The notes under the pieces: model-generated | What the model saw: the letters and a program-made list of their open reading frames with translations, nothing else | Database searches by the model: none | Told to the model about the DNA's origin: nothing | Shown here: positions 4,252 to 48,748 of the stretch, piece by piece | Position numbering within the stretch: position 1 is the stretch's first letter | How the letters are laid out: every line of letters begins with the position of its first letter | Made by a program: the position numbers and the translations under genes | NCBI GenBank assembly: GCA_000990585.1 | Contig: LBQD01000003.1 | Location: forward strand, 79,504-143,503 | From: Candidatus Moranbacteria bacterium GW2011_GWE2_35_2- | Lineage (GTDB): Bacteria > Patescibacteriota > Minisyncoccia > Moranbacterales > UBA9337 | Direction of reading: 5' to 3' | DNA length: 64,000 nucleotides

Positions 4252-5733
4252 ATGAAATACAAGGCGACAATTGGGATGGAGATTCATGTGGAGCTTAAGA
4301 CGGCTTCTAAGATGTTTTGTGGGTGCAAAAATGGACTAGGGCTGGAAAAAAAGCCGAATGTGCACATTTGCCCGGTTTGCACGGCGCAGCCCGGGACGCT
4401 TCCCGTGCCTAACCAAAAAGCGGTTGAATTTGTGCAATTGGCGGGATTGGCTTTGAATTGCAAGTTGCGAGAACAATCCAAGTTTGACCGCAAAAACTAT
4501 TTTTATCCCGACATTCCAAAAGGTTATCAAATTTCTCAATATGATCAGCCGCTGTGCGAGAGGGGAGAATTAAGAATTAAGAATAATGAATTAAAGGAAA
4601 AAAAAATCGGGATTACTAGAATTCATTTAGAGGAAGATACTGGAAAACTTATTCATCCGAAAGGAACGGATTATACTCTGGTGGATTTCAATCGCGCAGG
4701 AGTGCCCTTGATGGAGCTGGTGACTGAACCGGATTTTGACGGCGGAGATGAAGCGAGAATTTTTTGTCAAAAACTTCAACAAGTTTGCCGATATTTGAAT
4801 ATTTCCGATGCGGATATGGAAAAAGGAAATATGCGTTGTGAAGCAAATATTTCACTGTATAAAGAGGGAGAAGACAAATTGTCGGGAACAAAGGTAGAAG
4901 TAAAAAATATCAACTCTTTTAAATTCGTGGAAAAAGCGATTAATTTTGAAATCAAAAGACAATCGGAAGAATTGGAAGCGGGAAAAAAGATTGTGCAGGA
5001 AACGCGAGGGTGGGATGCCAATCGAAACGCGACAGTTTCACAAAGGAAAAAAGAATCAGCACATGATTATCGATATTTTCCTGAGCCGGATATTCCTCCG
5101 ATGGAATTTACAACTGAATATTTTGAAAAATTGCGCTTGAATCTTCCGGAAATGCCGGCGGAAAAATCCAAGAGATTTTCCGAGCAGTATAATCTTGCAT
5201 CCGACGCTGTGGAACTTTTGACTGGCGATCGTGATTTGGCGGATTATTTCGAAAAAACAGTCAGTGAACTCGAGGAAAAAATTTGCTCCAAGGAAATTTC
5301 CTGTGAAAAGAAAAAAGCGGTGAAATTGGTGGCAAATTATATTAATACCGAATTGCGAAAACATCTGACGGAAGGTGGGCATTCAATTCGCGATATTCAA
5401 ATTACCCCGGAAAATTATGCCGAGTTTATTGGAATTGTGGCGGAAGGAAAAATCAATTCCAGCGCGGCACAGACAGTTCTCAAAGAAATGTATCGAACCG
5501 GGGGCGACCCATCACAAATTATCGAAGAAAAGAATTTGATGCAAATGGAAGATGACACCGAATTGGAAAAAGTCATCCATGATATTTTGGTAAAAAATCA
5601 GCAATCCGTGGATGATTTCAAGGCCGGAAAAGACCGAGCTTTGCAATTTTTGGTTGGACAAGTTATGAAAGAAACAAAGGGTAAGGCTAATCCGGCTAAG
5701 GCAATGGAATTTATTAAAAAGATTATCGCATAG
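4252..5733 (+). CDS. gatB: Asp/Glu-tRNA(Asn/Gln) amidotransferase subunit B
   Basis: N-terminal GMEIHVEL...CGC...CPVC motif region. C-terminal YqeY-like tail. 493 aa. Confidence 0.9.
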   Translation: MKYKATIGMEIHVELKTASKMFCGCKNGLGLEKKPNVHICPVCTAQPGTLPVPNQKAVEFVQLAGLALNCKLREQSKFDRKNYFYPDIPKGYQISQYDQPLCERGELRIKNNELKEKKIGITRIHLEEDTGKLIHPKGTDYTLVDFNRAGVPLMELVTEPDFDGGDEARIFCQKLQQVCRYLNISDADMEKGNMRCEANISLYKEGEDKLSGTKVEVKNINSFKFVEKAINFEIKRQSEELEAGKKIVQETRGWDANRNATVSQRKKESAHDYRYFPEPDIPPMEFTTEYFEKLRLNLPEMPAEKSKRFSEQYNLASDAVELLTGDRDLADYFEKTVSELEEKICSKEISCEKKKAVKLVANYINTELRKHLTEGGHSIRDIQITPENYAEFIGIVAEGKINSSAAQTVLKEMYRTGGDPSQIIEEKNLMQMEDDTELEKVIHDILVKNQQSVDDFKAGKDRALQFLVGQVMKETKGKANPAKAMEFIKKIIA

Positions 5734-5883: not shown

Positions 5884-6816
5884 TTATTTTTCAATAAAAC
5901 GGGAAACTTCTTTTTCAATATTTGCGTACTTGTTTTTTTCTTTTTGCTCGATTGGAATCCAGATAATTCTTTTGTCTTTTGCAAACCAAGTTCTTTGACG
6001 TTTGGCATAATTTTTTTCTGCCAGGTATATTTTTTCTTTTAATTCCTCTTTGTTTTTTATGTTTCCTTTTAAGTACTCCGGAATTAAGTTGTAACTAAGT
6101 CCAAAGCTTTGGATTTTTTTCCAACTCAGTTTGTATTTTTCATGCAAATCTTTCACTTCTTCAATCATTCCCATTGAAAATCTTCTGGTGACATTTTTTT
6201 TTATTCTTTCATTTAATTCTTCTTTTTCTCTTGCTATACCTATTTGTAAAAAATCATAATTCTTAATTTTTGATTCTTGATTCATGGGTGGGACTTTCCC
6301 GATGGCTTTGCAAATTTCTATTGCTCGAATTAATCTGACTTTATTTTTAGCATCAATATTTTTCGCTCTTTCCGGATCCAGTTTTTTTAATTTATTAAAA
6401 AGGATTTCCGTGCTTAATTCTTGCATCTTAATTCTTAATTCTTGATTTGGTTTTACTTCCGGAAAATCCACGTTGTCGACAAGCGCTTTGATCCAAAATC
6501 CGGTTCCGCCACAAATGATCGGAACTTTGCCGCGCTTCAAAATATCCTTGATTATTTTCTCGGTTTTCTTTTTGAATTTGGCGGCGTTATATTCCGTTTT
6601 TGGCGAGGCGATATCAAGCATATGGTGCGGAACCATTTTTTGTTCCGCTTCGGTTATTTTTCCAGATCCGATGTCCATTCCGCGGTAAATCTGTCGTGAG
6701 TCAGCGGAAATTATCTCACCATCAAATTTTTGCGCAAGCCGAATTGCCACATCCGATTTTCCGGAAGCAGTAGGACCGAGGATGACGATTATTTTATTAT
6801 CGCTTCTAAATTCCAT
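5884..6816 (-). CDS. miaA: tRNA dimethylallyltransferase
   Basis: IVILGPTASGKS P-loop. IPP-transferase family length and motifs. Confidence 0.9.
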   Translation of the reverse strand: MEFRSDNKIIVILGPTASGKSDVAIRLAQKFDGEIISADSRQIYRGMDIGSGKITEAEQKMVPHHMLDIASPKTEYNAAKFKKKTEKIIKDILKRGKVPIICGGTGFWIKALVDNVDFPEVKPNQELRIKMQELSTEILFNKLKKLDPERAKNIDAKNKVRLIRAIEICKAIGKVPPMNQESKIKNYDFLQIGIAREKEELNERIKKNVTRRFSMGMIEEVKDLHEKYKLSWKKIQSFGLSYNLIPEYLKGNIKNKEELKEKIYLAEKNYAKRQRTWFAKDKRIIWIPIEQKEKNKYANIEKEVSRFIEK

Positions 6817-8351
6817 ATGCTTGCCTTGGTGATTTTTGCTTTTATTATTTTTCCGATGAGATTTTTTGACTCCGACGTTTTGTCGGAGTGAAAATTGGGT
6901 ACAATTTTCACATTTTTCATTGTGCGGGTTTTGCCGAAATAGTTTCCGTTTTTTTTGTTTTCAATCAAGACTTCTAAAGTTTTTCCGACATATTTTTTGT
7001 TATTTTCAAAACACGTTTTCTTGAGAATTTCGTTGAGATAATTTGCTCTTCTTTCTTTTTCCATTTTACTGACGTTATCTTTCATTTTCCAGGCGGCAGT
7101 TTGCGGGCGGGGGGAGAATTTTCCGAAAAATACCATATCGAATTTCGCCTTGCGCATCACTTCGGCGCTATCTTCAAATTGTTTTTTGGTTTCTCCCGGA
7201 AAGCCAACGATAATGTCGGAAGTGATTGAAAATGGAACAGCGGGTTTGTGTTTCTTGAATGCTGATTTTATTTTGCGGACTTTTGTCAGATATTCTTTCT
7301 GGGTATATTTTCGGTTCATATTTTTCAAAACTTCGTCGCAACCGGCTTGAATGGGAAGATGGAAATTTTCGCAAACCTTTTTGCATTTGGCGACCGTTTC
7401 AATCATTTCATCAGTCACGTCTTTCGGATGATTGCTCACAAAACTGATCCAAAATTTTCCGGGAATCGCGTTGATTTTTTTCAGGAGTTGGGGGAAATTT
7501 ATGCTATCGTTCTTGACCCCCTCTGTCCTCCGGACATCTCCCCCTTGGAAAGGGGGAGAGGGTAAAGAGGGGGATTTGTATGAATTCACATTTTGTCCGA
7601 GCAGGATGATGTGCTTTGTTCTATTTTTTATCAATTTTTTTATTTCGGAAATTATTTCATCTGCCATGCGGGAAACTTCGCGTCCGCGGGCGTAGGGAAC
7701 AACGCAGTAGGCGCAAAAATTGTTGCAGCCGGTCATTATGGGGACGCCGGCTTGAAATTTATCGGAGTATTTTGGGGTAATCGAAAAATAGGAAGTATTA
7801 TTTTTGCGGGTTGTTAATTCAGGATACGCCGGAATTTTCAATTTTTCCGCCAAAGGCGGACCAGCCTTGGGCTGGCAATTTACAATTTTTCCGCCAAAGG
7901 CGGACCAGCCTTGGGCTGGCAAACAATTTTCAATGACAAATTTTTCAAACTTTTTGAATCCATTGATTGGGAAAAATAGGTCTACTTTGTTTTTCAATCT
8001 TCTTTGCACATCCGGTCTGTTTGCCAAACATCCTGTCAATATGATTTTAATTCTTGATTTCTGATTCTCGATTCCTGATTCTTGATTCCTGTCTCTCAGA
8101 TTATGTATTTGTCCATAAACCCGGTCTTCTGCCATTTGTCGCACTCCGCAGGTATTAAAAATAACCAAATTGGCGTCATTGATGTTTTTGGTTTCTTTAA
8201 ATTTTTGAGACGACAAAAATCCAGCGATTCTTTCGCTGTCGCTGTAATTCATTTGACACCCGAACGTTTTTATGTAATACTTTAGCATTGAAGTTGTTTG
8301 AAAAATAAATAGTAGTTTTTTCAGCATATCAAAAATTGACCCTAAAATCAA
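6789..8351 (-). CDS. miaB: tRNA-i6A37 methylthiotransferase (radical SAM MTTase) with in-frame repeat insertions
   Basis: MTTase N-domain (KTFGCQMN). Radical SAM CNNFCAYC. TRAM-like C-terminus. About 70 aa longer than usual because of repeat-derived insertions. Confidence 0.85.
   Translation of the reverse strand: MILGSIFDMLKKLLFIFQTTSMLKYYIKTFGCQMNYSDSERIAGFLSSQKFKETKNINDANLVIFNTCGVRQMAEDRVYGQIHNLRDRNQESGIENQKSRIKIILTGCLANRPDVQRRLKNKVDLFFPINGFKKFEKFVIENCLPAQGWSAFGGKIVNCQPKAGPPLAEKLKIPAYPELTTRKNNTSYFSITPKYSDKFQAGVPIMTGCNNFCAYCVVPYARGREVSRMADEIISEIKKLIKNRTKHIILLGQNVNSYKSPSLPSPPFQGGDVRRTEGVKNDSINFPQLLKKINAIPGKFWISFVSNHPKDVTDEMIETVAKCKKVCENFHLPIQAGCDEVLKNMNRKYTQKEYLTKVRKIKSAFKKHKPAVPFSITSDIIVGFPGETKKQFEDSAEVMRKAKFDMVFFGKFSPRPQTAAWKMKDNVSKMEKERRANYLNEILKKTCFENNKKYVGKTLEVLIENKKNGNYFGKTRTMKNVKIVPNFHSDKTSESKNLIGKIIKAKITKASIWNLEAIIK
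7516..7578. repeat. GC-rich palindromic module (TCTCCCCCTT-GGA-AAGGGGGAGA) inserted in frame in miaB
   Basis: Perfect 10-bp arms. Locally GC-rich in an AT-rich gene. Encodes SPSLPSPPFQGGDVRRTEG. Related module in the DGR RT at 18009-18050. Confidence 0.7.
7842..7926. repeat. two tandem copies of a 44-bp GC-rich unit inside miaB
   Basis: TTTTTCCGCCAAAGGCGGACCAGCCTTGGGCTGGCAA occurs twice. It holds sub-palindromes CCGCC-AAAG-GCGG and CCAGCC-TTG-GGCTGG. The ORF stays open. Confidence 0.8.
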
Positions 8352-10662: not shown

Positions 10663-13600
10663 TTAGGTTAATTCAATTTTTGCGCCGGTGGTTTTTTCTA
10701 TTTTTTCGATTAAATCTTTTCCTATGGCGACGCTGTACGAGGTTTCCATTTTTGATTCATTAAGCGAAAGATAGATTCTGGTTTTTCCGAATTTGCAGAC
10801 GCCGAGAGTGTCGGAAATATTTTTGAGGGTCATTTGGCTGGATTCGGGAGGTAAAATAATAGTAAGCTTTTCATTTTTAATTGGTGCATCCTTTTTTTCA
10901 AAATGTCCGTTGCTTTTTTGCGTGTGCAAAACTCTTTTGAAACTTTCCAATTCTTGCTGGTTTATTTCCTTGGCGTCTTCAGCTAGGATTTTGAAAACCC
11001 CGTCTTTGTCCGAAAGTTTTCCTTCGACCAAAACAATGCGGTCTTCTTGCCAAATTGAGCCAATCCGTTCCAGCGTTTTGGGAAAAATTAGAAGTTCTAT
11101 TTTTCCCTTCAAATCTTCAATCGTGGCAAACATCATTTCTTGATGGCGCTTGGTGATGATTTTTTTGACCGCGCTGATAACTCCTCCGACTTTTACCATC
11201 TGCCCGACCATATTTTGGTTCAATGCGTTGACGGGAATCGCCATTTGGTTAAAATATTCCTGATAATCAGAAACCGGATGTCCGCTTACATATAGTCCCA
11301 GCAGTTCTTTTTCCCATTGCAATTTTTCCTTCTTTTCCGCCGGAGCTGCCGGTTCGAGTTGAATTTTTGCTTTGGAAAGAATTTCTTCGCCAAAGAGGCT
11401 GGTTTGACTGGAATTTTTATTTTTTTGGATATTCTTGGAAAAAGCCAGAATAGTTTCTATATTTTCCAGAATTTGATTCCGCTCCGCCATTTGATCAAGC
11501 GCGCCCACTTTTGCCAGCGCTTCAATTGATTTTTTATTCAAATCCCGAATAGTGATTCTTTCAAGCATATCTCCGAGACCTGCATATTTTCCATTTCTTT
11601 TTCTTTCAGCGACAATTTCATGAGCGACCGGCTTGCCCACATTTTTTATGGCATTGAGTCCAAAGCGAATTTTTTCGTTATTATCAGTTCCCTTAACAAC
11701 CGCGAATTCTTCAAAGCTTTCATTGACATCCGGAGGCAAAACTTCGATTCCCATATGTTTGGCTTCATCCACCTCGATAGCGATGCGTTCGATGTTATCT
11801 TGGTCGGAAGTCATCAGTGCCGCCATAAACTCTGCCGGATAATGCGCTTTGAGATATGCTGTTTGATAACCGATGAGTCCATAGCAGGCGGCGTGGGAAT
11901 TATGAACCACGAAATCATTGGCGACAAAGTTGTGAGTGCTTTCGATGGTCAAATCGTAGGTCTTTTTTCTGCCTGATTTTTCGATGGAAATTATTTTATC
12001 CCAATAAATATCAGAGTTTCCCAATTCTAAAAGTTTTTTGCTTTTGAGTATTTTTCCGATTTCAAAAACAGTTTCCCGTAAAAAACCAACCTTCCTTTTG
12101 TCCTTGAAAAACAATCTTTCGGCAAAGTTGTATTCTTGGGAAAATTCTTTAGCGGAATATCCGGCATTTATAATTTCTTTTCTGATAATTTCGATAATTT
12201 CGGATGGAATAATGTCGCGGCTTCCGCGCGCGGAATAATTTTTTAATTGCCCATTTATTATTGGGTGGTTTTTGACGGCTTGTTTGATGTTTTTTAGTTT
12301 TTCTCCGATCAGATATTTTCCGGGACCTTTGTAGAAATTTTCGATATTATTGTACCTGTTTATGGTAAGTGTATATCCGATTTTTATCGTGTTTTTATAT
12401 TTAAATTTTTTCTTATGAATCGTGCCGATAATATTCAGCCGTAAAAGCAAATGTTGGAGCTGATGTGCCATTTTTTTTGAAGATGTCGCATAAAATATTT
12501 GCGGATATTTTCGGGAAAGACTCACACATCCGTCTCCTTGAAACATTTTTCCAATAAGCAAAGACAAGTCTTCGGAGTCTAACTTGAAAGCCAATTCTGG
12601 AATCTCCTTTTCGGTGGCTCTTTTTCCGTGAATTCCGATTGATTTTATCCAATCAACTGCTCCCGACTTTTCTTTCAGATTGATTCTTCCTGCATAAATC
12701 GAGGTTGCCGGTTTGCTTTTGTTGACTGTCGCTTTCGTGTTTTTAAACTTTTGCAAATTCAAAGTATATTCCTTTAATTCTGCCTTGTTTTTTGAGTAGA
12801 AATAGAAGCTGTGCGGATGGCACAAATTTCCTTCGGCCAGCAAGTATCCCAAGATAATCAATTTGTATTTCTCCATTTTTATTCCCTTAAAATTTAAAGG
12901 AAGGTTTCGCGCCATGGCTATTCTTTCTCCTGCCTTTATTTCTTCCAATTTTTTCCATCCGGAAATTGTCAAAAGCGGATGGTTGGCGGTGGCTTTGATT
13001 GTTTTTCCCAGCGCGGTTTTTATTTTAAAAACATCTTTCGTTCCATTGAAAAAAACTTTTGTTATTTTTCCATTTCCAAGTTTCAAATCATTTTTCAATG
13101 TTAAAATTTCGGGAAGTTTTTTTTTGTTGTTGTGCCAGTTATATAATTCTTCAAGGCGGAATTGCTTGCCGCTTTTTGCGTCGGTTATGAGCGTATCTCC
13201 ATCCAAGCATCGATTAAAGCCGTATCCGGCGAACGGTTCGATAAAAGCGAAAACATTTTCGGCAGTTTTTTTGTCGATTCCATTTTTTACGCATCCTTCA
13301 ACGAATTTTATTTTCTGTTCCTGAATTAAATTTAAAATTTTCTTTCCTACCGCTTTGCGAAGAACGTCAGCTTCTCCCAAGGTAAAACCGGCAAGCTGTT
13401 GTGCCATCTGCATAACTTGTTCTTGATAAACTGCTACGCCATAAGTTTTTTTCAAAATCGGTTCCAGTTTTGGATGCAAATAAGTTATCTTTTTCAATCC
13501 ATGTTTGCGCGCGATAAAGTCCGGTATCCAATCCATCGGTCCGGGGCGGTAAAGCGCTACCATAGCAATCACATCTTCAAGATTATTCGGCATTAATTGC

Positions 13601-15907: not shown

Positions 15908-16600
15908 ATGAGCCAAATAAAAAAGAGGTGTGTTATGTCGAAAAGCAAGAAGCAGGTTGAGGCGATTGTGTCGGCGATGGGAGTTTTCACGGCGATTATT
16001 TCCACTCTCGTTGAACTGGTCAAAAAGTTCGGCGGAACGATGGAAAACATCTATCGTTTGGCGATTCCGGAAGGGCTTGTGACCCTGGAGGAGGTTGCGC
16101 GGGTGATCGTCGGGGCTGTTAAAGTTAAAAACGAGTTTCTCTGCCTCATTTTCGGTGGTGAAAATCTCATTATCGACGAGTGCAATGGTCGTGAAATTCT
16201 TGCCGATGCCAGTGATGTATTTGACTGGATCGACAGCGATTTTCGGAGCTGGGGTGCGGATGAGCAGGGACCAGCTACTAAAAAAACTCCCGTTCAGGTT
16301 TACGAGCTGGAAAAGGATGGGAAATTTCCTCAGATTTACGGCGCGCATTCGTCTGATCTGGATAAGCTCTGTCTAACCCAGCACCAGATTAAAAAATTTG
16401 TGCAGAAGTGTCGCGATTGGTTGAGAACTGATGGATACGGAACGTTTTTCTTATTCAAATCCAAGGGACATTATTTCGTCGCCGGTGTGGGCTTTGATTC
16501 CGGTGGCAGGCTTTGGGTGAGCGTGCACCGGCTCGAGAATGTGTATGTCTGGGATGCCGAGAATCGATATCGCTTTGTGTTTCCGCAACTGGACATCTAA
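15908..16600 (+). CDS. DGR variable (target) protein, 230 aa, C-terminal VR
   Basis: Its 3' 116 bp is a near-copy of the downstream TR, with adenine-specific differences. Higher GC than the surroundings. Confidence 0.7.
   Translation: MSQIKKRCVMSKSKKQVEAIVSAMGVFTAIISTLVELVKKFGGTMENIYRLAIPEGLVTLEEVARVIVGAVKVKNEFLCLIFGGENLIIDECNGREILADASDVFDWIDSDFRSWGADEQGPATKKTPVQVYELEKDGKFPQIYGAHSSDLDKLCLTQHQIKKFVQKCRDWLRTDGYGTFFLFKSKGHYFVAGVGFDSGGRLWVSVHRLENVYVWDAENRYRFVFPQLDI
16475..16590 (+). repeat. DGR variable repeat (VR)
   Basis: 116-bp ungapped alignment to 16908-17023. 15 mismatches, 13 at TR adenines. Confidence 0.75.
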
Positions 16601-16907
16601 CACTTTGTCCTATTGTGGCGCTTTGTCCCTTGGACTCTTTGACGCTTCTGCGTTTTGAGTTCAAGGGATTTTTTTGTATAATAAAATTGCAATCCTGGAA
16701 ATATCCGCGGTCAAGGCTTCGGGTCAAGGTTGTTGGAAAAATATATTCCGGAATTTTGTCGGACAAGTCTTGCAAAAGAGTGAAGATATTTTTTTAAAAA
16801 TAAAAACAGACAGTTGGTGCGGTAAATTGGAGAACTTTTAGGGTTTCAAATAAAATTCAATCCAGAGAGTATTCAATGGATGGTGGTATTGATGATTTGC
16901 CGCATAC

Positions 16908-17023
16908 TTCGTCGCCAATGTGAACTTTAATTCCGATGGCAGGCTTAAGGTGAGCGTGAACCGGCTCGAGAATGACAATGTCTGGAATGCCGAGAATCGA
17001 CATCGCTTTGTGTTTCCGAAACT
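16908..17023 (+). repeat. DGR template repeat (TR)
   Basis: Noncoding copy of the VR. Variable positions are AAY/AAR codons (aat, aac, aat, aag, aac, gacaat, aat, aaa). Confidence 0.75.
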
Positions 17024-17036
17024 TTCTGTTTTTCTC

Positions 17037-17339
17037 TCATCCATTCGATGAGAGTTTTTTATCCAAACCTTTTTTCCAACCGCCAAGCATTCTTCCGATT
17101 TCTTCCAATTTCTCGGAAAGGTCGATATATTTTTCATTGGGAATAAGTTTGTTTTCCCAAGCGGTTTGAGTAAAAAATTTCAAAACATCCAGTCTGGAGA
17201 TAGTCTTGCTTAAAAATATTATTTTATGTTCCGGCGGGAGATATGAAGCAGTAAAGGAAAGTTCCAGGATTTCAAGAAAAAGATTGTCAACTTTTCTCCC
17301 AATTCCATAGCGTTCGGTCTTGGGAAAATCACGATGCAA
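17037..17339 (-). CDS. avd: Avd-like four-helix-bundle accessory protein (23S-IVS protein family)
   Basis: FPKTERYGIGRKV...NEKYIDLSEKLEEIGRMLGGW matches the FPKEEKYGL...MLNgLi pattern. The ORF probably extends upstream to a non-ATG start. Opposite strand to the RT. Confidence 0.55.
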   Translation of the reverse strand: MHRDFPKTERYGIGRKVDNLFLEILELSFTASYLPPEHKIIFLSKTISRLDVLKFFTQTAWENKLIPNEKYIDLSEKLEEIGRMLGGWKKGLDKKLSSNG

Positions 17340-17391: not shown

Positions 17392-18429
17392 TTGCCGGGG
17401 GGGGGTTATAAAAGTCATAGTTTTGCTTTTCCGGACAAAAGCAAAAGTGCTTTTGATGGGAAAAATAAATTAAAAATTACATTTGAAGAAATCATATCTT
17501 TGGAAAATCTGCTGGAGGCTTGGAAAGAATTTGAAAAAGGAAAGAAAAACAGAAAAGATGTGCAGGAATTTTCAATGAATCTGATGGATAATATTTTTTC
17601 TCTCCATCAAGATCTTCTCAATCATACCTACAAACACGGCGGTTATCAAGCTTTCAAAATCAATGATCCCAAGCCTAGAGATATCCACAAAGCAAAAGTC
17701 AGGGACAGGCTTTTGCATCACGCCATCTACCGAAAACTCTATCCGTTTTTCGACAAAACTTTTATTTCCGATTCATATTCTTGCCGAATAAACAAAGGCA
17801 CACACAAAGCGATTGAAAAATTTCGAAAGTATTTTAACAAAGTAAGTCAAAACAACACGAAAACTTGTTATGTTCTCAAATGCGACATCAAAAAGTTTTT
17901 CGCCAGTATTGACCACGAAATTCTAATTTCAATCTTGAAAGAACATATTCCGGATGAAAATATTTTGTGGTTATTGGTGGAAATTATTGAAAGTTTTCAT
18001 ATTTCAAAACCCCTCCCCAGCCCTCCCCTTGAAAAGGGGAGGGGGATTGGACTGCCGCTGGGCAATTTAACCTCGCAATTGTTTGTGAATATTTATATGA
18101 ACAAATTTGACCAGTTCGTCAAACATAAACTGAAAGCCGAATATTACATTCGCTATGCCGACGATTTTGTGTTTTTGTCGCAAGACAGAAAATGGTTGGA
18201 AGATTTGATTCCAAGAGTCGGCAAATTTTTAGGCGATGAATTAAAACTCAAATTGCATCCGAATAAAGTTTACATCAAAACTTTTTCTTCCGGCGTGGAT
18301 TTTTTGGGAATAATCAATTTTCCGCACCACAAAATCCTGCGGACGAAAACGAAAAGAAGAATGATGAAAAAAATATTTCTCAATCATAAGATGTTGAGAG
18401 AGGGATTGATTTCAGAAGATAAATTTTAA
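17392..18429 (+). CDS. DGR reverse transcriptase
   Basis: RT domains with YADD (IRYADDFVFL). DGR-type motif IGLPLGNLTSQLFVNIYMNKFD. About 330 aa. Start uncertain and likely non-ATG. Confidence 0.85.
   Translation: MPGGGYKSHSFAFPDKSKSAFDGKNKLKITFEEIISLENLLEAWKEFEKGKKNRKDVQEFSMNLMDNIFSLHQDLLNHTYKHGGYQAFKINDPKPRDIHKAKVRDRLLHHAIYRKLYPFFDKTFISDSYSCRINKGTHKAIEKFRKYFNKVSQNNTKTCYVLKCDIKKFFASIDHEILISILKEHIPDENILWLLVEIIESFHISKPLPSPPLEKGRGIGLPLGNLTSQLFVNIYMNKFDQFVKHKLKAEYYIRYADDFVFLSQDRKWLEDLIPRVGKFLGDELKLKLHPNKVYIKTFSSGVDFLGIINFPHHKILRTKTKRRMMKKIFLNHKMLREGLISEDKF
17397..17405. repeat. G9 homopolymer between divergent avd and RT
   Basis: gccGGGGGGGGGtta, unusual in an AT-rich genome. Lies in the 5' region of both genes. 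Confidence 0.8.
18009..18050. repeat. GC-rich palindromic module (CCCTCCCCTT-GAA-AAGGGGAGGG) inserted in frame in the RT gene
   Basis: Perfect 10-bp arms. Encodes PLPSPPLEKGRG just before the conserved IGLPLGNLTSQ motif. Confidence 0.7.
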
Positions 18430-18536
18430 TCAAAGTTTGCAATCGTATTTGGGGATTCTGAGGCATTGTGATGGGTGGGGGATTGAGAAAGAGATAATGA
18501 AAATATCAGAATAAAAAAGTAAAGTTTTTTGATAAA

Positions 18537-19515: not shown

Positions 19516-20205
19516 ATGGAAATAGCAACATTTGATTTGGAAAAAAAACTTCTTGGCAAAGGGTATGGATTTGTTATTGGGGTGGATGAGGCGGGGAGAG
19601 GACCACTTGTTGGACCCGTTGTGGCTTGCGCGGCAACTCTTAAGAATAATGAATCAGGAATCAAGAACCAAGAATTAAAAGAATGGGATTTGGTGCGGGA
19701 TTCGAAAAAACTTTCTGCCGGACAACGGGAAAAGGCTTTTGATTTTGTTTTGGAAAATTTTCACGTTGGCATCGGGATTTGCGATCACGAAACCATTGAC
19801 CGAGTGAATATCTTAGAAGCATCATTTCTTGCAATGAAAATTGCCTTAGTAGATTTGAATTCAAAATTAAAAAATTATAAATTGAATAAAAATTCAAAAT
19901 TCAAAATTCAAAATTACAAGCAAATTTTGCTTGTAGATGGGAATAAGAAAATTCCCAATTTTTCCGGTGAGCAATTGGCGGTGGTCGGAGGGGATAAGAT
20001 CGTCAAATCGATTTCGGCGGCGTCGATTGTCGCTAAAGTGACCAGGGACCGAATGATGATGGAAGCGCACGAGAAATACCCTCAGTATCATTTCGACAAA
20101 CATAAGGGCTATGGCACTAAAATCCACATGGAATCGCTCAAACAATACGGACCTTGTGAAATTCATCGGAAATCCTTTGCTCCGGTTAAAAAAACGTTAA
20201 AATAA
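19516..20205 (+). CDS. rnhB: ribonuclease HII
   Basis: GVDEAGRGPLVGPVV, DSKKLS, LVDGN and a C-terminal KHKGYG. Carries in-frame low-complexity insertions. Confidence 0.9.
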   Translation: MEIATFDLEKKLLGKGYGFVIGVDEAGRGPLVGPVVACAATLKNNESGIKNQELKEWDLVRDSKKLSAGQREKAFDFVLENFHVGIGICDHETIDRVNILEASFLAMKIALVDLNSKLKNYKLNKNSKFKIQNYKQILLVDGNKKIPNFSGEQLAVVGGDKIVKSISAASIVAKVTRDRMMMEAHEKYPQYHFDKHKGYGTKIHMESLKQYGPCEIHRKSFAPVKKTLK

Positions 20206-25858: not shown

Positions 25859-25937
25859 GTCATTCCCGCAAAGGCGGGAATCCAGAAAATAATTAAAAAT
25901 ACAATATACCAGATTCCCGCCTTCGCGGGAATGACAC
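25859..25937. repeat. pair of inverted GC-rich palindromic units upstream of smc
   Basis: GTCATTCCCGCAAAGGCGGGAATCCAG, then after a 23-bp spacer its inverted copy CCAGATTCCCGCCTTCGCGGGAATGACAC. Each unit is itself a palindrome (ATTCCC-N8-GGGAAT). Confidence 0.8.
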
Positions 25938-48254: not shown

Positions 48255-48289
48255 GGCGCTATCGTCTAGTGGCTAGGACGCCAGGTTCT
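48255..48289 (+). pseudogene. partial duplicate of tRNA-Glu 5' half (acceptor, D-arm, 5' anticodon stem and start of loop)
   Basis: 35/35 identity with 48599-48633. Fused after TTCT to the 32-nt module. Confidence 0.7.
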
Positions 48290-48321
48290 TCGCCCTAGCG
48301 GGCGACCACCCGTTAGGGTGG
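48290..48321 (+). repeat. 32-nt GC-rich two-hairpin module, copy 1 (copy 2 at 48696-48727)
   Basis: TCGCCCTAGCGGGCGACCACCCGTTAGGGTGG = hairpins CGCCC-TAGC-GGGCG and CCACCC-GTTA-GGGTGG. Identical in both copies. Confidence 0.8.
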
Positions 48322-48338
48322 CATCCTTTTGAATTTTT

Positions 48339-48598: not shown

Positions 48599-48670
48599 GG
48601 CGCTATCGTCTAGTGGCTAGGACGCCAGGTTCTCATCCTGGTAACCGGGGTTCGATTCCCCGTAGCGCTA
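48599..48670 (+). tRNA. tRNA-Glu (anticodon CUC)
   Basis: GGCGCUAUCGUCUAGUGGCUAGGACGCCAGGUUCUCAUCCUGGUAACCGGGGUUCGAUUCCCCGUAGCGCUA. Glu-type D-loop. Anticodon loop UUCUCAU. Confidence 0.85.
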
Positions 48671-48685
48671 CAAAAATATGTATTA

Positions 48686-48748
48686 GGGGGGGTTCTCGCC
48701 CTAGCGGGCGACCACCCGTTAGGGTGGGATTCCCCGTAGTCGCTGCCA
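48686..48748 (+). other. tRNA-Glu T-arm/3'-acceptor-like fragment interrupted by the 32-nt module, ending in CCA
   Basis: GGGGGGTTC-[module]-GATTCCCCGTAGTCGCTGCCA against tRNA-Glu CGGGGTTCGATTCCCCGTAGCGCTA. Confidence 0.6.

Follow-up and report, generated by a model that had tools for sequence, protein, structure and literature searches.

The element and its host genes

A perfect palindrome lies inside the reverse transcriptase (RT) gene of a diversity-generating retroelement (DGR) in Candidatus Moranbacteria bacterium GW2011_GWE2_35_2-, a member of the candidate phyla radiation (CPR), and a sibling of it lies in miaB on the same contig. The stretch analysed here, called the window, comprises 64,000 nucleotides of contig LBQD01000003.1 and is A+T-rich (37% G+C). 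The palindrome, CCCTCCCCTT-GAA-AAGGGGAGGG, occupies 18021–18043, within a segment (18009–18050) to which an earlier sequence-only reading had drawn attention; its 10-bp arms, its GAA centre and the encoded peptide PLPSPPLEKGRG ahead of the IGLPLGNLTSQ motif are as that reading described them. The pattern CCCYCCCCTT-N3-AAGGGGRGGG has one match in the window and none in 100 dinucleotide-preserving shuffles. The two elements and their host genes are arranged as follows.

17392..18429, plus strand: host gene, DGR reverse transcriptase open reading frame (ORF), 345 aa, RVT_1 match with E = 2e-23
18010..18045, plus strand: inserted element CCCCTCCCCAGCCCTCCCCTTGAAAAGGGGAGGGGG, 36 nt, translated as PLPSPPLEKGRG
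18010..18018, plus strand: third block CCCCTCCCC, mirror of the neighbouring arm; its minus strand is the reverse-Hoogsteen G block GGGAGGGG of a putative class II triplex motif
18021..18030, plus strand: pyrimidine arm of the hairpin, CCCTCCCCTT
18031..18033, plus strand: hairpin centre GAA, 3 nt
18034..18043, plus strand: purine arm of the hairpin, AAGGGGAGGG
6789..8351, minus strand: host gene miaB, with the element at a hypervariable site between LGQNVNSY and NFxxLLKK
7515..7574, minus strand: sibling element in miaB, 20 codons, peptide SPSLPSPPFQGGDVRRTEGV

In translation the RT reads ...SFHISK-PLPSPPLEKGRG-IGLPLGNLTSQ (the longer stretch being ...ESFHISKPLPSPPLEKGRGIGLPLGNLTSQ...); the reading frame is kept and no stop codon is introduced. 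The insert falls between helix 189–201 and the IGLPLGNLTSQ motif. Because an AlphaFold2 model of the RT (mean pLDDT 76) shows residues 205–218, which lie between helices 189–201 and 226–247, as a coil of pLDDT below 50, the insert is predicted to occupy a permissive surface loop.

The 3′ end of the RT gene presents a separate irregularity. The ORF ends at 18429 after ...SEDKF, and the conserved C-terminal 28 residues (NQSLQSYLGILRHCDGWGIEKEIMKISE) carry on in the +1 frame past a T run (18420–18515); these residues are in frame in the sister contig L206 and in other relatives. The 345-residue product is identical in the NCBI, JGI and ENA records. The break may be a real frameshift, the mark of a decaying gene, or a shared assembly error.

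The miaB palindrome, TCTCCCCCTT-GGA-AAGGGGGAGA, lies at 7537–7559. It is embedded in an element that comprises an outer stem, CCCCCTCT/AGAGGGGG, the inner hairpin TCTCCCCCTT-TCC-AAGGGGGAGA, and a side hairpin, GTCC-GGA-GGAC, with a minimum free energy of −35.9 kcal/mol (z = −2.6). On the coding strand TCTCCCCCTT-TCC-AAGGGGGAGA is translated as ...LPSPPFQGG..., that is, Pro/Ser and then Gly, the same pattern as in the RT, and the earlier description of both modules as loops of this composition is borne out. On one point it is mistaken: the arms do not swap places on the coding strand of miaB as it stated, for the palindrome reads C-arm first on both strands. What had been overlooked is the third, mirrored block present in both copies, which in miaB is AGAGGGGG at 7566–7573.

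A second, distinct repeat occurs in miaB. A 32-nt double hairpin (TCCGCC-AAA-GGCGGA plus CCAGCC-TTG-GGCTGG) is found on the minus strand at 7846–7877 and again at 7890–7921. The two copies are 44 nt apart and are thus read in different frames (PAQGWSAFGG and QPKAGPPLAE); neither is present in the syntenic relatives L204–L206.

A three-block architecture

The third block brings both sites within the ITxF definition of intrastrand triplex motifs, which calls for pyrimidine, purine and reverse-Hoogsteen blocks with stems of 6–15 nt, at most one mismatch and loops of 1–6 nt (Holder et al. 2015, PMC4666352). An ITxF-like scan of the window returned exactly two perfect motifs with 8-nt stems, those at the RT and miaB sites, and none in 30 shuffles. 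The RT motif, at 18009–18042 on the minus strand, is CCTCCCCT-tttca-AGGGGAGG-gctgg-GGAGGGGT with 0 mismatches; read with full stems, the same strand gives CCCTCCCC-ttttcaa-GGGGAGGG-ctg-GGGAGGGG, again with 0 mismatches. The miaB motif, at 7537–7573 on the plus strand, is TCTCCCCC-ttggaaa-GGGGGAGA-gggtaa-AGAGGGGG, also with 0 mismatches. Taking 8-nt stems gives this motif a first loop of 7 nt; taking the full 10-bp hairpin gives one of 3 nt.

The layout is not peculiar to this contig. A scan of one genome per species with the pattern YCYYCCCCTTNNNAAGGGGRRGR, in which three arm positions are free, gave at least 120 matches. Among the matches listed are Nostoc, Microcoleus, Pseudanabaena, Cellvibrio, Nitrospirota, Dehalococcoidia, Planctomycetota, Saccharibacteria and other Patescibacteria, and among these the palindrome is most abundant in cyanobacteria. 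The sequence-only reading had named a lack of further copies as a point that would tell against it; copies occur in many genomes. Viral DNA offers no obvious reservoir, as the pattern was found in only 37 stretches among 2.9 million viral contigs, and phage vectors were set aside.

The arms are perfectly complementary in 119 of 133 genome copies, compared with 49 on average and 64 at most for shuffled pairings. In 98 of 119 copies the flank mirrors the adjacent arm at 7/8 positions or better, and a direct repeat of that quality is present in 41 of 119. For arms of the CCTC, TCCC, TCTC and TCCT types alike, the best match to the flank is the arm's own mirror, and the copies in RT loops display covariation of all three stems. 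A mirror block can neither form Watson–Crick pairs nor arise by strand copying, but it is what a triple helix requires. The palindrome is thus probably the hairpin core of a 36–39-nt G/C-rich intrastrand triplex motif, and the window elements may be expected to form triplexes, judging from their sequence.

A G-quadruplex was considered for the four G tracts in GGGGAGGG-TTA-GGGTGGGG. It was set aside since copies of the TCTCCCCC type have only two long G runs, and the mirror-block rule fits all types.

Occupied and empty sites

Gene order on sister contig L206 is conserved with the window (nucleotidyltransferase, RT, Avd, target gene, dnaE, thrS, miaB). At the equivalent site the L206 RT reads IIRSF-SK-GLPLGN (AGC TTT TCC AAG GGC CTG); relative to it, the window RT has 13 extra residues, or 39 nt, at 18010–18048. 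A comparison of 191 RT relatives, drawn from 120 proteins and from 80 metagenome loci picked by N-terminal RT motifs, with the loop masked, places this difference in context. The loop is short in 132 of the 191 (2–8 residues, typically S-[ST]-x-x-K-x-x-V) and long in 59. In a neighbour-joining tree the window clade is nested among short-loop RTs, and at least 36 changes of loop state are required. By these comparisons the RT palindrome is a real insertion of 36–39 nt. The RTs of L244, L245 and L246 have the insertion in common with the window, at the identical codon and in the identical frame, apparently by descent. The sequence-only reading had allowed that a homologous loop in DGR RTs of other lineages would weaken its case: L244–L246 do have such a loop, but most RTs lack it and others have different hairpins there.

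Every long loop of the C/G type among the 80 metagenome loci contains a perfect hairpin of 9–10 bp. The hairpins are:

L121: CCCTCTCCCG-atta-CGGGAGAGGG
L134: TCCCCTCCC-atcaa-GGGAGGGGA
L158: CCCTCTCCC-gtcaa-GGGAGAGGG

Hairpins unrelated to the element fill the same loop in L151 (9 bp), L174 (10 bp) and L189 (14 bp), and a few long loops have no hairpin. Among 79 of the 80 unbiased loci every occupied RT site is in frame and free of stops, which fits plain translation.

At L245 906–938 a 33-nt palindromic element (CCGCCTGCCATAGCCTGGCACTGGCGGGCAGGC, peptide PPAIAWHWRAG) is nested in the RT-loop triplex element, and the nested peptide is also found in P0038 and P0045. The peptide LDSR[LP]RGNDK fills the RT loop in two other relatives (P0071 and P0095); we take it to be a typical translation of palindromes of the ATTCCCGC-N4-GCGGGAAT kind, which occurs twice in an intergenic region of the window (25862–25881 and 25913–25932).

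The miaB site behaves similarly. About 40 of 120 MiaB relatives have only four residues (KDGK-like) at the hot spot, and the rest have many unrelated inserts, including C/G hairpin types, other palindromes and A+T-rich repeats. The closest syntenic relatives, despite DnaE proteins that are 89–97% identical, differ in their inserts at this site, and the sequence of the miaB element has no counterpart in L204–L206. The in-frame insertion proposed by the sequence-only reading thus stands for both modules, each of which is absent in close syntenic relatives. Among miaB-type elements of the window, L248 and L249, the side hairpin is preserved by compensatory changes.

Over about 20 kb of shared synteny, the window-specific insertions or deletions of at least five residues are an intein in DnaE, the two second-family double hairpins in miaB, the miaB element, the RT element, and three small indels without hairpins. 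The dnaE insertion (11899–13209, minus strand) is intein-like, 437 residues long (CLDGDTL...VVHN), and is not found in the 89–97% identical DnaE of L204–L206. A 117-nt difference in gyrB between L201 and L202, considered as an additional occupied/empty pair, was rejected as an assembly gap of Ns.

Dispersal within genes

Near-identical copies occur in frame in different genes of related CPR genomes, and the assignment of the RT and miaB elements to one dispersed family is upheld. The elements in the RT loop of L121 and in miaB of L249 are identical at 37 of 39 nt and are read in one frame, as PSPQPSPDYGRGG. One 39-mer, SPSPSGRGVRGEG, recurs at three places in L206: the miaB hot spot, miaA, and a position close to the TRAM domain of miaB; L205 has the first two. 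Further CPR copies lie in the genes for AlaRS, a class I aminoacyl-tRNA synthetase, QueA and a GT2 glycosyltransferase, and in the linker of DNA polymerase I (Pol I).

In 664 kb of CPR DNA there are 15 triplex motifs, 11 of them in long ORFs, and five of those 11 are in the RT loop. Outside the RT loop, long ORFs hold 6 of the 10 motifs, whereas about 80% of random positions fall in them; coding DNA thus tolerates the element but is not enriched for it. The earlier suggestion of a mobile palindrome that tolerates, or is selected for, insertion into coding sequence is accordingly upheld in part: the element is dispersed and tolerated in frame, but these figures do not favor selection for coding insertion. 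Mobility itself is suggested by patterns of presence and absence.

Relation to known repeats

Triplex motifs of the BoxC/PIT kind have been known for decades. The pattern CCCTCNCCC N3-6 GGGNGAGGG N3 GGGNGAGGG now bears the name TMECO, earlier BoxC or PIT, and in type A the second loop is TTA (Holder et al. 2015, PMC4666352). There are 3610 copies in 262 proteobacterial genomes, with abundance in Enterobacteria and high numbers also in cyanobacteria; single-stranded TMECO DNA forms a triplex in vitro, as judged by circular dichroism and nuclear magnetic resonance (PMC4666352). The repeats have no promoter or terminator activity and no link to mobile elements, are associated with strain-variable, unstable sites, and in E. 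coli MG1655 are intergenic in 23 of 23 copies (PMC4666352).

The window elements resemble this kind in several respects. The layout is the same (pyrimidine stem, loop, purine stem, short loop often TTA, mirrored purine stem), as are the size of about 34–39 nt and the G/C-rich stems with a single A/T position. The stems are highly conserved, the loops are free, and there is an association with sites that are locally unstable and vary among strains. The exact TMECO consensus has no match in the window, where the stems are CCCTCCCC and TCTCCCCC rather than CCCTCNCCC; the exact pattern is present in the inserts at the L121 RT loop and the L249 miaB hot spot, and in an E. coli thiQ–yabI spacer (L247). 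In addition, the 39-nt element of L205 and L206 is about 90% identical to E. coli BoxC copies over 37 nt. Because the consensus is unmatched in the window but exact in L121, L249 and E. coli, the window elements are, at the level of sequence, sibling variants of the described BoxC/PIT/TMECO kind, and relatives at equivalent sites are exact members. Two differences should be recorded. All E. coli copies are intergenic, whereas the window copies and their CPR relatives are in frame within genes, often at one protein loop, and the miaB variant has a side hairpin where the second loop would be.

Locus L158 carries two more perfect triplex motifs (5142–5173 and 5207–5238), with TTA second loops and in opposite orientation, just downstream of the RT that has a motif in its loop. 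E. coli TMECO copies are likewise reported to occur as inverted pairs.

The Rickettsia palindromic elements (RPEs) offer a functional parallel. They are described as repeats of about 150 bp with a conserved peptide, confined to Rickettsia (Ogata et al. 2000; PMC10969869), and they too are palindromic repeats in a reduced genome, in frame in unrelated housekeeping genes and translated at fold-compatible positions (PMC10969869). In-frame insertion into unrelated coding genes at permissive positions is also what is found here. The present element differs in being 36–39 nt long, in its triplex-type layout, in belonging to a family that spans phyla, and in encoding peptides that vary with variant and frame. 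Thus it works as RPEs do, being translated in frame, but is not a member of the RPE family.

With the REP/BIME/REPIN repeats, which are mobilised by RAYT transposases, the element has in common its short length (20–40 nt), G/C-rich hairpins, dispersal, and compensatory changes in the stems. REPs are extragenic and have a GTAG or CGTC head (PMC3733652). Neither window copy has GTAG or CGTC at either end, and the window copies are intragenic; nor is a mirrored third block a feature of REPs. Compared by description only, the small dispersed repeats of Nostoc are alike in being very small, structured, prone to nested insertion and at home in cyanobacteria; those treated by Elhai et al. in 2008 are reportedly 21–27 nt long and are not said to be triplex motifs or coding insertions. 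Yeast mitochondrial GC clusters and translational-bypass (byp) elements are G/C-rich hairpins that invade genes in an A+T-rich genome; a byp element disrupts the reading frame, and the ribosome skips it. The RT loop insert differs in staying in frame without stops, fitting plain translation.

The in-frame, hot-spot context in CPR bacteria appears to be undescribed, though the kind of repeat is known; a literature search found no account of the arm sequences or of palindromic insertions in CPR genomes.

Proposed explanation

The explanation that we consider probable is that the palindrome belongs to an in-frame, triplex-type repeat that is tolerated as a disordered loop and is a passenger rather than a part of the DGR. 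A copy would have entered the DGR RT gene of this Moranbacteria lineage in a short surface loop just before motif 4, and the enzyme would tolerate its translation into a disordered Pro/Ser...Gly/Arg loop; the sibling in miaB would be tolerated likewise. The element would act as structured, "selfish" or instability-prone DNA. Copies would appear, be replaced and be lost at a few permissive protein loops, spreading by a route that we infer, while a constraint at the nucleic acid level would keep the three stems in register. Insertion, tolerance and conservation of the structure are the parts of this proposal on which the sequence comparisons bear directly, and they uphold all three.

Several observations weigh against this explanation. 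No triplex signal was detected in vivo even for E. coli TMECO (PMC4666352). Copy number in CPR DNA is low, at about 15 motifs per 664 kb. The strong nucleotide conservation of the RT copy, described below, could mean that it has a function. The neighbour-joining tree is rough, and independent gains could be overcounted if RT genes have recombined. Movement is read from distribution only, since the analysis turned up neither a mobilising enzyme nor a terminal signature nor a target-site duplication, the window ORFs not having been screened for Y1 transposases. MITEs are defined by terminal inverted repeats together with a target-site duplication. The flanks of the 39-mer in L206 (AAA|...|GCT, ATC|...|GAA and TTC|...|TCT) and those of the window copies share no duplication, though numbers are small, with three copies of the 39-mer. 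Finally, triplex motifs fill the RT loop in 3 of 80 unbiased loci, where about 0.01–0.1 would be expected from background density, and protein tolerance alone does not account for this excess over intergenic density. The miaB site is crowded in the same way. The excess may reflect targeting of the site, longer retention in coding DNA, or local instability seeded by a first insert; the last would fit the findings of Holder et al. 2015.

Alternative explanations

The copy in the RT might instead have a function in cis, for the RT gene or for the DGR, and be maintained in this RT clade by selection. It could, for example, be a hairpin or triplex that sets RT dosage through pausing of transcription, translation or replication, or a structure that the DGR machinery recognizes. 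The DGR context of the palindrome is genuine. An RT with a ...GxxxSQ motif, an Avd gene, and a template repeat (TR) and variable region (VR) that differ at TR adenines are all found at the locus:

17037–17339, minus strand: bAvd, DGR accessory gene
16472–16590: VR, at the end of the target gene 15908–16600
16905–17023: TR, 87% identical to VR, with nearly all TR/VR differences at TR adenines

Constraint at the nucleotide level, which forms part of the proposed explanation, lends such a role some weight as well. The RT genes of the window and L245 agree at 72.6% of nucleotides and, within conserved codons, at 58% of third positions, but the element is identical at 35 of 36 nt. The elements of L205 and L206 match at 39/39 and 38/39 nt; all 26 of their third positions are unchanged, compared with 72% and 82% in the host genes (chance about 0.001). 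In L246 all three stems are altered in concert, to TCTCCCCT / AGGGGAGA / AGAGGGGT. In the two comparisons, then, the aligned sequences indicate that the element is better conserved than the synonymous sites of its host gene, a pattern that could stem from selection on structure, from gene conversion among copies, or from repeated re-insertion. The frequency with which hairpins fill the RT loop, far above background density, also agrees with a role in the RT gene. The same family, however, is found in miaB, miaA, aminoacyl-tRNA synthetase genes, Pol I, QueA and intergenic DNA, and in E. coli, where there is no such RT context. Most of the family's RTs work without the insert, among them the one at the syntenic L206 locus, and unrelated hairpins occupy the loop in L151, L174 and L189. 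An Rfam search of the DGR region and the whole window placed no family on either hairpin, returning only two tRNAs and a sub-threshold RT-7 at 16747–16795, and a terminator scan found no terminator-like site at the palindrome. We therefore regard a DGR-specific role as unlikely, and a cis-element of either description as improbable. Sequestration of Shine–Dalgarno or anti-Shine–Dalgarno sequences, and service as a DNA uptake sequence, were considered separately and are unsupported by a copy density of 2 per 64 kb.

It is also conceivable, though we judge it quite improbable, that the palindrome arose in place, by template switching during replication that extended and perfected a small quasi-palindrome in the loop, and that its likeness to other copies is a convergence of C-run and G-run sequence. 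Arms that differ between copies and yet are nearly always complementary are what templated correction would give, and empty sites do contain short inverted repeats (TTTTC...GAAAA, CCAAGG). The mirrored third block cannot be made by strand copying, yet it covaries with the arms. Nor would convergence readily yield the elements identical at 37 of 39 nt in unrelated genes of different contigs, the 39-mer found three times in L206, or the CPR copy that matches E. coli BoxC at about 90% of 37 nt.

That the insert is kept for the sake of the protein, with a flexible Pro/Ser/Gly-rich loop by motif 4 benefiting the RT and the palindrome a by-product of codon choice, is very improbable. Loops rich in Pro/Ser...Gly/Arg are found at this position in many RT relatives, and the loop is surface-exposed in the AlphaFold2 model. 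On the other hand, the peptides vary by family and frame and it is the DNA structure that is conserved, third codon positions are invariant, the second miaB repeat is read in two frames, and most RTs have only 6–8 ordinary residues there. A palindrome might also turn up by chance where sequence complexity is low: shuffled C/G-run sequences still fold well, and the RNA fold z-score of the RT region is only −1.6. This reading is refuted by the empty shuffle tests (0 matches in 100 window shuffles; 0 triplex motifs in 30 shuffles compared with 2 observed) and by the orthologous, paralogous and TMECO-pattern copies found elsewhere, and its probability is negligible.

Implications

The comparisons show that elements of the same kind lie in frame in essential CPR genes, recur at the same protein loops across lineages, and vary less in sequence than the silent sites of their host genes, whereas the E. 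coli copies are intergenic. The occupied, empty and replaced sites provide a natural system for asking how such repeats move and whether their surroundings are destabilised. They also counsel caution in annotation, as a Pro/Ser...Gly/Arg-rich "loop" in a CPR protein can be repeat DNA and need not have evolved as a feature of that protein. The RT loop, in turn, is marked as a permissive site for the engineering of DGR reverse transcriptases.

More tentatively, G/C-rich triplex repeats might constitute a cross-phylum, structure-constrained mini-element that in CPR bacteria keeps returning to a few codon-scale sites in essential genes (the DGR RT loop before motif 4, the radical-SAM loop of MiaB, MiaA, aminoacyl-tRNA synthetases and Pol I). 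We hold this broader proposal to be possible but doubtful. Were it true, it would imply a mechanism of targeting or retention, and the repeats would be built-in generators of insertion and deletion variation in protein loops rather than passive intergenic clutter.

Other repeats in the window

A+T-rich repeats of the NSKFKIQN type also occur as protein insertions, in RNase HII of the window (19516–20205; NSKLKNYKLNKNSKFKIQNYKQ) and at the hot spot of several MiaB relatives; RNase HII of L205 has extra segments unlike those of the window protein. Another G/C-rich hairpin (GCCCTAGCGGGCGACCACCCGTTAGGGTGG) is present twice, at 48275–48327 and at 48683–48736, the second copy directly following the tRNA at 48599–48670.

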